Source of the DNA: a virus | Length of the DNA stretch: 64,000 nt | Reading direction: 5' to 3' (one strand) | Virus record (IMG/VR): IMGVR_UViG_3300031420_000003 | Coordinates: 1-64,000 of that record | Part shown: positions 40,856 through 45,311 of the stretch, in pieces | How positions within the stretch are numbered: position 1 is the first letter of the stretch | Layout of the letters: every line of letters begins with the position of its first letter | Made by a program: the position numbers and the translations under genes | The notes under the pieces: model-generated | The model's database searches: none | Seen by the model: only the letters and a program-made list of their open reading frames with translations | Told to the model about the DNA's origin: nothing

Positions 40856-41339
40856 TGTTGTCTCCTACTTCACGGTCGTCAGGGTGACGCAGAATCAGAT
40901 AGCTGATACAGATAACCGGCAAGTCCAGTTCATCACGGTCAACGTGAATCACCAGAATTGGCGTACACACCGGAATGTTTGCATTGCAATCCAGCCACAT
41001 GGAATTCAGACGAATGGTTTCCACCGAACGCAGACCAATTTCCTTTGGCAGCGAGGGGTCAATTTCATCCCACATTGCATTCGGGTCATTGTCTTCGTTA
41101 CGGTAATCCGCGCAGGCGATTAACTTGCGCAGCATCGACTCTTCAAGCGGAAGGGTAATCTGCTCAGTCGGGGTTTCATCAAACGTCAGGCTGACATCTT
41201 CAATGATAAAGATTTGTTCAGCGTTCGAGAAGTACCGCCACAGTAATGCATGGCGGTCATTCACGGAGCCAATCACCTTACCGTTGATTTCAATGTCATT
41301 CTCATCGGGGATGACACTGATAACTTTGATACGGTTCAT
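40842..41339 (-). CDS. Hypothetical protein (165 aa)
   Basis: Tightly packed ORF in a minus-strand run. Confidence 0.7.
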   Translation of the reverse strand: MNRIKVISVIPDENDIEINGKVIGSVNDRHALLWRYFSNAEQIFIIEDVSLTFDETPTEQITLPLEESMLRKLIACADYRNEDNDPNAMWDEIDPSLPKEIGLRSVETIRLNSMWLDCNANIPVCTPILVIHVDRDELDLPVICISYLILRHPDDREVGDNIDRT

Positions 41340-41347
41340 GGCGTCCC

Positions 41348-42751
41348 TTATTCGGATACGGTCTCTTTCACGATGTAAGACGCCGCATCGTCTGCGAACT
41401 GCCAGTAATCGATCTTCTCAACCGGCTGATGACGAGTTCCGTCTTTGCCGTCGAGGGTGAACTCGAACAGGACGTGAGGGCGCGGATAGAAGGTGTCGCC
41501 ACCGTAGTAAACGCCGACGCGGACAAACTGCACGTGACTGCCGCCCAGCGTGGCGCGAATGGCATCAGCCGCAGCATTCAACTGCTCTTGAGTAGGCACA
41601 ACCGGGAAGTAAGACACTTCTACGGTTTTCTTTTCAACGAAGCCCAGCTCATCAACCGGCGTGAAGTGCGTCGTTAAACCACGTGCACTACCGCTCTGCA
41701 CGTCGCCGTCATAATCTTTCAGCTGTTCGGTTGGCGACATCTCAGCTTGGATGCTTGGGCCGTTGTCGCCGTCGAAATCGCCAGCCTTTTCGGTGTCTTT
41801 CAGGGCACGTTGGATACGATCGTTATCAGACATATCAGACTCCTTCACAAACACACCATCTGCATTCAGGAAACCGGTGCGGTCTTTGATTTCATCCCAC
41901 GCCATGGACAGGGCTTGCTCCAGCGTGAATTCGTACGCATTAGCCAGCGCGTTGGCAAAGTAGATAGCTTCGGCCAAGTAACCGACAGCACACTGGATCT
42001 GCGTTTCGTCGAACAGGTCTGCGGTCAGCTTCTTCGGTGAATCAACACCGGCTACATCCCACAGGTAGTCAACCGCGACGGTGTTGGACAGACGCAGTTT
42101 GTGATACAGGTAATGCGCGTTACCCAGCGGGCCGTTTTCTTTACGGGACGCTTCAACCATTGGCAGAATAGAAACAGCGTTAAAGCCGCTCAGTTCCATC
42201 AGGTTAACCATCACCACGATCATGTCACCGACACCGTCGATAATCATGTTGCGTTTGGACTTGGCGACACCCGGTGCAATCTCACCGTCTTCTTCGTACA
42301 TCTTGGTCGCTTGGGTGAACCAGACGCCGTTGTCCAGAATGCCGCGCGCCTGTGACCAACCTTTGATGTTATCAATCAGTTCAGCCATGCGGAACAGACG
42401 GATATAGCGCGGGTGTGTCACGATGTTCTTTTTGTCGTGATACAGCGGAACCAGCAGTTCCAGCTCCAGACCCGGCAGGGTCAGTTCGCAGTCGTAAATC
42501 TCTTCACCGCGTTGACGGTTAGCGACCAGCTCTGGATCGTTTTCAACATCGCCGTCTTCAGGTGCCAGCAGACCTTCGATAAACCACTTACCGGTTTCGA
42601 CGTTGCGATCCAGTGAGGAGATAGCACGGAAGAGGATGTTTGCCCGGCCTTCTTTTTTCAGCTCTTCCAGCTGTGCATTAACCTGCGCCAGATACTGGTT
42701 CGGATTCAGCAGTGCAACGTATGGCACTTGGATTACAAATTGATCGCCCAT
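41348..42751 (-). CDS. mazG: MazG-like nucleoside triphosphate pyrophosphohydrolase with extra N- and C-terminal domains
   Basis: QATKMYEEDGEIA...DGVGD...AWDEIKDRTG...GVFVKE. Confidence 0.8.
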   Translation of the reverse strand: MGDQFVIQVPYVALLNPNQYLAQVNAQLEELKKEGRANILFRAISSLDRNVETGKWFIEGLLAPEDGDVENDPELVANRQRGEEIYDCELTLPGLELELLVPLYHDKKNIVTHPRYIRLFRMAELIDNIKGWSQARGILDNGVWFTQATKMYEEDGEIAPGVAKSKRNMIIDGVGDMIVVMVNLMELSGFNAVSILPMVEASRKENGPLGNAHYLYHKLRLSNTVAVDYLWDVAGVDSPKKLTADLFDETQIQCAVGYLAEAIYFANALANAYEFTLEQALSMAWDEIKDRTGFLNADGVFVKESDMSDNDRIQRALKDTEKAGDFDGDNGPSIQAEMSPTEQLKDYDGDVQSGSARGLTTHFTPVDELGFVEKKTVEVSYFPVVPTQEQLNAAADAIRATLGGSHVQFVRVGVYYGGDTFYPRPHVLFEFTLDGKDGTRHQPVEKIDYWQFADDAASYIVKETVSE

Positions 42752-42792
42752 TTGATGTCAGTCCTTAAAATTAATCGATGTTTATATTGGTT

Positions 42793-42822
42793 AAGAAAAG
42801 AATACCCCGTCGAAAGACGGGG
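42793..42822 (-). terminator. Intrinsic terminator
   Basis: ccccgtc-gaaa-gacgggg plus U-rich tail on the minus strand. Confidence 0.65.
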
Positions 42823-42832
42823 CAGGCACTAC

Positions 42833-43021
42833 TTAGATTTTGCAGCCATCGCAATCTGCTTCATCAGAAATGTCATCCTGATTCTCTTCAGCAGAACGCT
42901 TCTCGGCTACACGCGCTTCTGCGTCGTCCAAACCCGGCAGGTCAAAACCGTCTGCGTCATCCGCAACCATTTTGTTGTGCTCGTCGATAGTGGACTGCAT
43001 TGCGCCTTCTTTCTGGGACAT
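42833..43021 (-). CDS. 62-aa acidic peptide ending CDGCKI, resembling an NrdA C-terminal tail
   Basis: AAGGA SD, own terminator, terminal CxxC-K-I. Confidence 0.65.
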   Translation of the reverse strand: MSQKEGAMQSTIDEHNKMVADDADGFDLPGLDDAEARVAEKRSAEENQDDISDEADCDGCKI

Positions 43022-43081
43022 CGTCTTTTCCTTCTTTGGTCAGTATAGAGTGTTTCAGCATAGAACTGCTAACACACGTTT

Positions 43082-43318
43082 TTAATCCGCGTGGTATTTT
43101 GCTTGACAGTGAGGACAATCGAAGGAGTCTTTATTGCGCGCCCACGTTATCCGTTTACCACAGCTCACACAGCGGTAGTTGTCGGGCTTGTACTTGATAT
43201 CCACCCGTGCACCGCACTTGCAGTCGTAGCCGGCGATAGAGACAAAGCCTTCTTTATCGTGCATCACCCGTGGTACGAGTGTGTGCTCGCCACACTTGAA
43301 ACAGAGGTTGTGTTTCAT
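43082..43318 (-). CDS. Small double zinc-ribbon protein
   Basis: CFKC, CKC, CVSC and CPHC knuckles in 78 aa. Confidence 0.7.
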   Translation of the reverse strand: MKHNLCFKCGEHTLVPRVMHDKEGFVSIAGYDCKCGARVDIKYKPDNYRCVSCGKRITWARNKDSFDCPHCQAKYHAD

Positions 43319-43327
43319 GGCCCACCT

Positions 43328-44335
43328 TTAAATGGCGACCGGCGCTTTAATAGCCGGATGCGATTCGTAACCTTCGATTTCGAAATCGTCGAACTGGTAG
43401 TCGAAGATGGAATCCGGCTTGCGTTTGATTTTCAGACGTGGTAACGGGTGTGGGTCACGGGTAAGCTGCAGCTTCGCCTGTTCCAGATGGTTGGAGTACA
43501 GGTGCGTGTCACCACCAGTCCAGATGAACTCTTCAGCCACCATGTTCACCTGCTGAGCAACCATTTCCGTCAGTAGCGCGTAAGAGGCGATGTTAAACGG
43601 CACGCCTAAGAACACATCGGCGCTACGCTGATACAACTGGCAGGACAGACCGCGGCGGGGAATATCCAACTCATCAAGTTCATCATGTAACTGTTCTTGA
43701 TGCTTCTCGTTGAGGTTCTGATAATACCCGCCTGTCCCCTTCAGGTTGGCAAACTGGCCACGTTCTTCGAGAGTCAACTCACGGGTGTAGAACTGGAAGA
43801 ACGCATGGCAGGGCGCTAAGGCCATGTCGTCGAGTTCGCCGACGTTCCACGCACTGACGACGATGCGACGGTTATCCGGGTCGTTACGCAGCTGGTCAAT
43901 GACTTTAGAAATTTGATCGATGTCCTTAGTAAGGAGCATAGTCGCTTCCCGCCACCCGGCCTCTTCCCAACCGTCAGCTTCCATTTCATCGATGGTTTTG
44001 CGGTTAGAGTGATGCACTTCATCGTGTGCTGTCCAAGACCGCCACTGTTTACCGTAGACCGGGCCTAAGTCACCGTTCTCATCCGCCCACTCATCCCAGA
44101 TAGAGACGTTGTTCTCTTTCAGGTAACCGATGTTGGTATCCCCTTTGAGGAACCACAGCAGTTCGTGAATGATGGAACGCAGATGGCACTTCTTGGTGGT
44201 GACCAGCGGAAAGCCTTCGGTCAGGTCAAAGCGCATCTGACCACCGAACATGGAGAGTGTGCCCGTGCCGGTACGGTCTTTCTTTTCACGACCAAAGTTG
44301 AGTACGGTTTCCATCAGTTGAAGATACTGGCGCAT
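43328..44335 (-). CDS. thyA: Thymidylate synthase
   Basis: [42 protein letters not shown]. Confidence 0.97.
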
Positions 44336-44910
44336 TATTTGTTTCCTGTCACGGTTTTGACAAACTGACCGAGTTCGTTCATGACGCCCTCAGTCGCTTC
44401 AAGTTTATTCACCGCATTCAAAATGCTGCGGGTCACGACGATGTCTTTCGCGGTGGCAATCGATAACAGTAAGGCTAACGCTTCGGCAAGCTTGGAATAG
44501 AACACGATGTCCTGACGCTGCTTCTCCTGCTCGTTTTCCAGCAGGGCATCAAACAACTGCGTAATCGCTTTGTTGTGCTCAAACAGAATCGTGTTGTAGT
44601 CGTTGCCGAATTTCATCCCCGGTGGAATGTTGTTCAGAGCAGAGTGCAGCACGACCTCTGTAACGGCTTCTACGGGGATGTCCGTTTTACGGGAGTAGAA
44701 CCCGAGAACACCGATAAAAGTCGTCACAGCCTGTCCCACGCCCGCTGAGACCAGAAGACTGTCCATCTTCTGCACACCTTCTGCAACCATGCCCAACATG
44801 CGGTAATATTTGGTGATTTGCTGACGGATGTTACCAAACTGATACACCAGTGCCCGGTCATTCCACTGTTCGACTTGACGGACAACTGCAATTGGATCGA
44901 AATCGGCCAT
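44335..44910 (-). CDS. MazG-like paralog lacking the catalytic acidic residues
   Basis: Aligns by eye with the MazG domain of 41348..42751, but EEDGE becomes RMLGM and DGVGD becomes AGVGQ. Confidence 0.6.
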
Positions 44911-45311
44911 TAGATACCCCAAATGACGTTAAAGCCCAACATCTCTTCACGGTCGCTGAAATAGCTGACCAGCACGATAGAGTTCGGCTTGAAAGTGGAC
45001 GGCGGATGTCCCTGTGCGACGTGCTTACCGGACAGGGTGCGTAAAATCCCCAATTGACGATAGGCGAACATGCCGCTTGTGAAGTCAGCGTTCTGCAAGA
45101 GCGCGGCAGCGGTGTCGGTTCCAATGCGGAAGCAACCCCCTTTGGCAATGGCGTCCAGCGAGTTGTTCAGTGACAGCTCGTTGGTGATGGTCATGTTAAA
45201 CCCTTTAGCCAGTGCAAAAGCTGTGTCTTTCCAATGGCCGTTCTTCGAGCCCGGAATCAATACGCCGTTAATAAAAGCGCCTTCGTCTTCTTTAAATTCA
45301 ATCGTGTTCAT
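44910..45311 (-). CDS. Hypothetical protein
   Basis: ORF 44910..45392; probable start at MNTIEF. Confidence 0.65.
   Translation of the reverse strand: MNTIEFKEDEGAFINGVLIPGSKNGHWKDTAFALAKGFNMTITNELSLNNSLDAIAKGGCFRIGTDTAAALLQNADFTSGMFAYRQLGILRTLSGKHVAQGHPPSTFKPNSIVLVSYFSDREEMLGFNVIWGI

Follow-up and report, generated by a model that had tools for sequence, protein, structure and literature searches.

What could a jumbo phage with no recognisable ribonucleotide reductase (RNR) gain from a small gene whose product ends like the redox tail of that enzyme? The question is raised by an open reading frame (ORF) for 62 amino acids (aa) at positions 42833..43021, minus strand, of a 64,000-nucleotide (nt) stretch of phage DNA, here called the window. 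It is the first 64 kb of the virus record IMGVR_UViG_3300031420_000003, which is 248,416 bp long and has direct terminal repeats and an estimated completeness of 100%. The named phages closest to it are Kwan and Wellington of Erwinia (genus Wellingtonvirus), whose DNA is about 81-83% identical over part of the region. The C-terminal tail of NrdA, the large RNR subunit, is reduced by thioredoxin (Trx) or glutaredoxin 1 and then re-reduces the cysteine pair of the active site, which is a slow step of RNR turnover; GrxA, or Grx1, is a classic hydrogen donor of NrdA. An original prediction, made from the letters of the window, took the ORF for a free-standing mimic of this tail. That identity of the ORF's end is well supported by the comparisons below. 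As to function, our tentative preference is for a trans-acting dithiol tail of NrdA type, reduced by glutaredoxin (Grx) or Trx, that would act on the NrdA of the host.

The gene, its signals and the parts of its product are located as follows.

42833..43021, minus strand: gene of the 62-aa acidic microprotein, stop codon within the range (ORF list, ATG start; member of PHROG 10239)
43029..43034, minus strand: Shine-Dalgarno sequence GAAGGA, 7 nt 5' of the ATG (read from the sequence)
42896..42946, minus strand: residues 26-42, FDLPGLDDAEARVAEKR, second conserved module, an acidic-hydrophobic patch and then a helix (alignments A1 and A4)
42836..42883, minus strand: residues 47-62 (ENQDDISDEADCDGCKI region), predicted unstructured acidic tail of NrdA type (AlphaFold2 and hhalign)
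42842..42853, minus strand: CxxC pair Cys57-Asp-Gly-Cys60, then Lys-Ile-COOH (alignment conservation)
42793..42824, minus strand: intrinsic-terminator-like hairpin and T run, directly 3' of the stop (hairpin and folding scan)

The window ORF ends ...DDISDEADCDGCKI before its stop, i.e. ...DEADCDGCKI. Because so short a match, of about 10 residues, cannot be significant in a search of 5.8 billion sequences, NrdA tails with the same end were sought through a DNA pattern: DC[DE]GCKI followed by a stop was back-translated and scanned over viral contigs, which gave 110 matching stretches, and the reading frame ending at each of the 80 loci listed was classified. Small acidic proteins of the tail family accounted for 25 of the 80 loci, including one 71-aa protein with a different N-terminal part, NrdA for 11, a PF13876 domain followed by the tail for 4, and other short frames for 2. 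The remaining 38 loci (L102 and 37 others) held a 135-aa frame rich in Arg, Ser and Cys, ending ...LVFTYLDCEGCKI and antisense to an ORF of more than 176 aa in a much-sampled prophage; they were treated as a single chance match multiplied by sampling.

The 11 phage NrdA frames among the listed loci end in DC[DE]GCKI before the stop, letter-identical to the end of the microprotein. Six are full-length proteins of 755-781 aa, counted from the first ATG (716 aa for the one at L161), with an ATP-cone start and PF02867, and share 48-57% identity with Erwinia NrdA (alignment A3); one of the frames, from Escherichia phage Lw1, carries the annotation nrdA. As a positive control, PF02867 was confirmed in all five tested records with an NrdA of this ending. 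The host NrdA of Erwinia, Pantoea and Hafnia has its own tail intact and ends ...DDGCESGACKI, as do the 761-aa R1 chains in the PDB, which we take to be those of E. coli; the host NrdE ends ...EGCVSCSL. When the family alignment was compared by hhalign with nine NrdA C-termini, the last 12 columns aligned at 94% probability (E 1.1e-7). A search for longer forms of the family returned 16 proteins, none of them NrdA, and a separate pattern search of viral contigs gave 133 matches, 7 of which were confirmed against the 62-aa first row. Stretches reading IDIDNL or IDLDDIL in some phage NrdA tails resemble the upstream patch of the family, a resemblance that is anecdotal and unsupported by the profile comparison.

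The ORF itself is a real, conserved gene under purifying selection: pairwise ratios of nonsynonymous to synonymous substitution (dN/dS) among the window, Kwan and a 239-kb relative are 0.13-0.26, at dS values of 0.55-1.33. Its product has 19 Asp and Glu against 6 Lys and Arg, for an isoelectric point (pI) of 4.05, and the hairpin behind it (42824-42803, minus strand; 9 pairs, 6 of them G-C) has an energy of -18.2 kcal/mol with z -3.6, none of 200 shuffled sequences being as stable. The very acidic composition, the ribosome-binding site and the terminator were all part of the original prediction and were borne out, as was the identity of the tail. The further suggestion that the protein is probably disordered held for the tail only. 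AlphaFold2, run on a 34-row alignment, left residues 47-62 as coil (block pLDDT, the predicted local distance difference test, about 50) and predicted helices at residues 2-23 and 31-46, in a model with a mean pLDDT of 69.7 and a predicted template modelling score (pTM) of 0.29. Searched alone, the window ORF matched no Pfam family, thus not PF13876 either, and no PDB sequence at E up to 10. A sigma-70 scan of 42500-43500 found no promoter. The sequencing runs listed as containing 41300-44400 of the window are DNA metagenomes from phyllosphere, root and plant, with no RNA run among them.

The tail gene belongs to a family that is already catalogued, as PHROG 10239 (no function given) and under 'hypothetical protein' entries in GenBank. 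Residues 22-62 of the window ORF align with positions 8-47 of the 47 in the PHROG 10239 hidden Markov model (HMM), at E 1.8e-5 and 26.2 bits. Orthologues annotated as hypothetical occur in Kwan, Wellington and pEa_SNUABM_11 at 75-84% identity (84% for Kwan and Wellington), and three distant small ORFs match the same profile: AH04 gp015 (45 aa), Aioli_00021 (39 aa) and Y3 gp038 (51 aa), the matches of these three and of the window ORF ranging from E 1.8e-5 to 1.2e-6. The phages carrying the gene span, by the taxa given in their records, Wellingtonvirus, Meadowvirus, Chaseviridae/Loessnervirus and Sasquatchvirus, and the family is present in several unrelated groups of Erwinia and Pantoea phages. 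A single-sequence protein search with the window ORF found 5 close relatives only; a profile search of 5.8 billion proteins found 116 proteins at E up to 10, and 1.84 billion cluster representatives, searched exhaustively by HMM, yielded 40 clusters at E up to 1e-3.

Conservation of the terminal CxxCKI, a check proposed with the original prediction, was evident among the 155 family proteins pooled from these profile and HMM searches, weak matches counted in. The motif is C-terminal in 138 and takes the form CxxxxCKI in 4 more (142 of 155 together). It is internal in 6, which look like gene calls reading through a stop codon; the database proteins P0082, P0117, P0120 and P0136 run past ...CKI with a W, and look like a TGA stop read as Trp. 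The other 7 deviate: three end in CKL, CKV or CTI, two have CX3C, one has no second Cys and one is unrelated. The rare CX4C variants, GCEGGACKI and ECEGGGCKI among them, mirror the NrdA tail of host type. Alignment A4, of 34 sequences, shows little or no variation at C57, G59, C60, K61 and I62, and the upstream module, an acidic-hydrophobic patch and then a helix, is common to all family members, phage and chromosomal. The tail motif is not a chance occurrence, being found once per record in 25 of 25 records, against none of 25 for the reversed pattern.

The family also has a bacterial branch. Homologues of 43 aa, all ending DEADCEGCKI, are encoded on the chromosomes of Erwinia, Pantoea, Mixta, Izhakiella, Serratia, Rouxiella and Chania, in 144 genomes when one genome per species is taken, and the E. 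amylovora version is present on 323 contigs. Synteny was counted for the best 80 of the loci from the 144 genomes. A DUF808 (yedI-type) gene lies directly upstream in 79 of these 80 and a yodC-like gene downstream in 72; the lone exception is Hafnia paralvei (L030:8001-8129), with none of the five Erwiniaceae markers nearby. Because 79 of the 80 loci are syntenic, the 43-aa homologue in Erwiniaceae is a vertically kept core gene and not prophage cargo. Across an even sample of the order, the host gene was present in 9 of 401 genomes (taxa unlabelled). One record classed as 'provirus' with the host-type form (G017) proved to be a host flank with vsr, yedI and the yodC-like gene, and was dropped from the phage tally, leaving 23 other phage records and the window genome. 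With a homologue at a fixed locus in 144 species genomes, the tail microprotein is more than a phage oddity. The original prediction had known of no stand-alone example of such a tail, and missed both the catalogued family and its chromosomal members; in its favour, no paper on a free-standing RNR tail was found in the main texts of open-access full-text papers and bioRxiv preprints, nor any described bacterial or phage protein that supplies the NrdA tail in trans or competes with it.

Do the phages that carry the gene encode an RNR? The original prediction had seen no nrdA body in the window, and this extends to the whole 248,416-bp genome, in which the large subunit (PF02867), the small subunit (PF00268) and the class III enzyme (PF13597) are all unmatched, as are glutaredoxin (PF00462) and thioredoxin (PF00085). 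PF02867 was likewise absent from all 24 records with a free-standing tail gene, including the 19 that are at least 90% complete, and PF13597 from 24 records with the window genome counted in. The 24 records represent perhaps nine or ten groups of relatives and are not independent lineages.

Redoxin genes, in turn, were found close to the tail gene. PF00462 matched in 5 of the 25 records, in each case no more than about 450 nt from that gene; four of the matches are of GrxA type and one is thioredoxin-like. The glutaredoxin is directly upstream in 3 records and 450 nt downstream in 1, and in AH04 its stop lies 5 nt before the start of the tail gene. The two phage glutaredoxins tested exceed the NCBIfam equivalog cut-off for the GrxA family (92.9 and 90.9 vs 84 bits). 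In a 90-kb phage (G019) the weak Grx match, 331 nt downstream, fits the description of a thioredoxin-fold gene better and is the sole PF00085 match in the 25 records. This adjacency is seen in at least two unrelated phage types, and in genomes of about 260 kb it is very unlikely to have arisen by chance.

The other neighbours in the window, all on the strand of the tail gene, are the following.

43328..44335, minus strand: thymidylate synthase ThyA, upstream of the tail ORF (PF00303, E 2e-116)
41348..42751, minus strand: MazG-like nucleotide pyrophosphohydrolase, beyond the terminator (PHROG 7855, E 1.9e-112)
43082..43318, minus strand: 78-aa zinc-ribbon-like ORF between the tail gene and thyA (sub-threshold zinc-ribbon Pfam matches only)
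44335-44922, minus strand: 195-aa ORF directly upstream of thyA (PHROG 10269, E 3e-35; weak MazG PHROG matches)

The 195-aa ORF looks like a diverged MazG-like paralogue of 41348-42751. Together with thyA and the 78-aa ORF it forms the run of same-strand upstream genes that reaches the tail ORF. Judging by strand and spacing, thyA and the tail ORF are probably in one transcription unit, of which the tail ORF is probably the last gene. The placement between thyA and mazG was correctly predicted, though the 78-aa ORF also in between went unmentioned. This small ORF has several CxxC pairs; it is a neighbour, and its membership of the tail system is not implied. Kwan has no ORF at this position; its tail gene and mazG are instead separated by gp260, a hypothetical gene of 152 aa.

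Three of the window neighbours (thyA, mazG and the MazG-like paralogue) count as genes of the pool of deoxynucleoside triphosphates (dNTPs), and elsewhere, too, thyA, mazG and genes for a dCTP or dCMP deaminase often lie near the tail gene. Y3 has a dCMP deaminase and thyA nearby, and Aioli has an annotated thymidylate synthase 1.4 kb downstream. In the 90-kb phage the stop of a dCTP deaminase gene (TIGR02274, above cut-off) overlaps the start of the gene for the 71-aa tail-bearing protein; the cluster (L208:1763-3099) consists of the deaminase, the 71-aa protein, an 82-aa ORF and an 85-aa thioredoxin-like protein with CQPC. PF00303 is present in 14 records, in 3 of which thyA lies within 0.3-0.7 kb of the tail gene and in 3 more within 2.7-3.4 kb; in the other 8 it is distant. 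In two relatives (G014:C1:74083-75945 and G015:C1:26453-28870) thyA matches PF00303 in two separated pieces, inside one 623-aa open frame in the former and about 1.5 kb apart in two frames in the latter, which suggests the insertion of an intein, an intron or a homing element.

From this gene content and from the tail itself we infer that the microprotein would act on the dNTP supply of the host. In the mechanism that we tentatively favour, it would be a soluble protein with an N-terminal helix, an acidic-hydrophobic patch with a second helix, and a flexible acidic C-terminus of NrdA type, the two cysteines of which would cycle between dithiol and disulfide. Glutaredoxin 1 or thioredoxin would keep them reduced; the window phage would draw on those of the host, and some relatives on a GrxA or thioredoxin of their own, the gene for which adjoins the tail gene. 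The reduced tail would then enter in trans, in the manner of the tail that NrdA itself carries, the active site of host NrdA, the only class Ia enzyme of the infected cell, and re-reduce the active-site disulfide, and the added tail capacity would raise dNTP output for a phage without RNR. Transfer in trans has a reported parallel in yeast, where the tail of one RNR alpha protomer is said to regenerate the active site of its partner (attributed to Zhang et al., 2007, in PNAS). A positive role is preferred because the phages need the host enzyme and because, in some of them, the tail gene has a gene for a GrxA-type reductant as its neighbour. A complex prediction of Erwinia NrdA residues 1-737 (10-row alignment A3) with the 62-aa ORF (34-row alignment A4), made without controls, gave scores of 0.14 and 0.19, the mark being 0.32, and counts neither for nor against the mechanism.

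Several observations weigh against this mechanism. The host NrdA has a tail of its own, which makes the benefit of extra tails an assumption, and hhalign found no similarity between the family and NrdA beyond the last 12 residues. The chromosomal homologue adjoins yedI (DUF808) and the yodC-like gene, and not nrd genes. With a consensus for the NrdR box as the query, no box-like site was found upstream of the homologue in any of 68 host loci, nor in 42701-45300 of the window; the same scan did recover the box in front of nrdA in all 3 controls. Fusions of the tail to PF13876 proteins fit a general role as a handle at least as well as an RNR-specific one. As a statistical association, the absence of RNR is weak, because RNR is present in at least 5000 of 50,697 phage records, because the tail-gene records are non-independent and because one of the original records is a host flank.

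The same end could serve to restrain RNR. Small disordered eukaryotic proteins such as Sml1, Spd1 and Hug1 regulate RNR as inhibitors, and a free tail might likewise occupy the tail-docking site of NrdA or compete for Grx and Trx. The host copy would then be a housekeeping brake, and the phage copy a hijacked brake directed at host dNTP synthesis or at the RNR of a competitor phage. The microprotein tail is closer to the CX2C tail of phage NrdA than to the CX4C tail of the host, the syntenic chromosomal copy is a conserved core gene, as for a regulator, and Sml1 is reported to compete with the C-terminal domain of R1. We nevertheless consider an inhibitor unlikely: for phages without an RNR of their own, yet with thyA, a deaminase and mazG, blocking the only RNR of the cell looks self-defeating, and a GrxA-type gene next door argues for cooperation over blockade.

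RNR need not be the target at all, if the tail is a portable module that Grx or Trx can bind or reduce, and that recruits redoxins, relays electrons from them or acts as a sponge for them. The tail is indeed joined to unrelated N-terminal parts. It ends PF13876 proteins of about 118 aa, with a DDC[DE]GCKI end, at four loci (L126:2819-3178, minus strand; L134:1753-2109, plus strand; L144:1910-2266, minus strand; L168:1164-1520, plus strand), the 71-aa protein encoded beside a thioredoxin gene, and N-extended forms of 130-462 aa; the redoxin genes that adjoin the tail gene would suit such a handle too. PF13876 is the N4 Gp49 / Sf6 gp66 family, equated in a preprint with Acb4, a sponge that counters the cyclic-oligonucleotide-based antiphage signalling system (anti-CBASS). 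Apart from NrdA, the carriers are all phage accessory proteins without an assigned role, however, and no alternative acceptor enzyme recurs beside the tail gene, where the recurring neighbours act on dNTP pools. None of the three tested records with a PF13876 fusion encodes a redoxin, and none of them encodes an RNR; among five records with PF13876 fusions or the two other motif-ending frames, a single RNR match was obtained, a weak one, in the record of a 41-aa frame that does not belong to the family. On this evidence a handle with no RNR target seems hardly likely either.

Quite improbable, in our judgement, is a role unrelated to redox chemistry or RNR, in which two CxxC ends would form a Cys4 metal site or the acidic protein would mimic DNA or a protein tail, the NrdA-like end being convergent or a relic of recombination. 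In its favour are a pI of 4.05, as in many phage mimic proteins, an alignment with NrdA that spans only 12 residues, and a conserved acidic-hydrophobic motif upstream for which there is no explanation. The exact seven-residue end including its free carboxyl, the parallel CX2C and CX4C variation and the adjacency to GrxA would, however, be hard to obtain by convergence. The detached tail of a split phage NrdA, which the original prediction had listed and for which the tail motif itself speaks and nothing further, is next to impossible: PF02867, PF00268 and PF13597 are missing from the 248-kb genome, PF02867 and PF13597 from the 23 other phage records, and the host NrdA has an intact tail, so that the idea is refuted for the window genome, barring an RNR body too divergent for the Pfam model that detected 5 of 5 controls. 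The observation behind the original prediction is confirmed and its interpretation partly supported.

No de novo route to dNTPs other than RNR is known. Should host NrdA be the target of the microprotein, it would represent a new viral route to the control of nucleotide supply that does not require carrying an RNR, a new small RNR regulator or cofactor in plant-associated enterobacteria, and a tool of 40-60 residues with which to probe electron transfer from tail to active site. A broader proposal, which we regard as rather doubtful, is that the family constitutes an unrecognised soluble accessory of class Ia RNR, present on Erwiniaceae chromosomes and in numerous phages of these bacteria, and that it supplies the NrdA active site with reducing equivalents in trans, or gates them there. 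RNR-less phages, sometimes with a GrxA of their own, would overdrive the host enzyme instead of importing nrdAB, and the same tail on PF13876/Acb4 and other proteins would be a portable address or redox handle. A side effect, if this were true, might be the evasion of defences triggered by phage NrdAB, as a preprint reports for DRT2, DRT4 and DRT9 (bioRxiv 10.64898/2026.10.27.754916).

Among known systems, the closest is the redox tail of NrdA itself. The microprotein has the same flexible acidic C-terminus with a Cys pair and Lys-Ile-COOH, its last seven residues are those of phage NrdA tails and come close to the GCESGACKI end of the host and E. coli type, and its genes are linked in the genome to a GrxA-type glutaredoxin. 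It differs in being a separate 62-aa gene without a PF02867 body, in a genome without RNR, and in having an additional acidic-hydrophobic and helical module that profile comparison does not align to NrdA. It looks like an NrdA tail and, for want of a catalytic body, does not count as an NrdA; the family to which it belongs is PHROG 10239. With the other PHROG 10239 proteins and the 43-aa chromosomal proteins it forms one family by HMM and shares the same two modules, the Wellington-type phage form being distinguished by about 20 extra N-terminal residues with a further predicted helix. Sml1, Spd1 and Hug1 are similarly small and largely unstructured, and are proposed to act at the interface used by the C-terminal tail of R1; in contrast to the microprotein they are without the cysteine pair of the tail, they are inhibitors, and no kinship in sequence is expected. 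A last parallel is the Grx domain fused to NrdB in Facklamia ignava, described in a published report (PMC6187632), which is likewise a part of the relay from Grx to tail to active site in a non-canonical gene arrangement. There the reductant has been joined onto RNR, whereas here the tail appears to have been cut loose from it.

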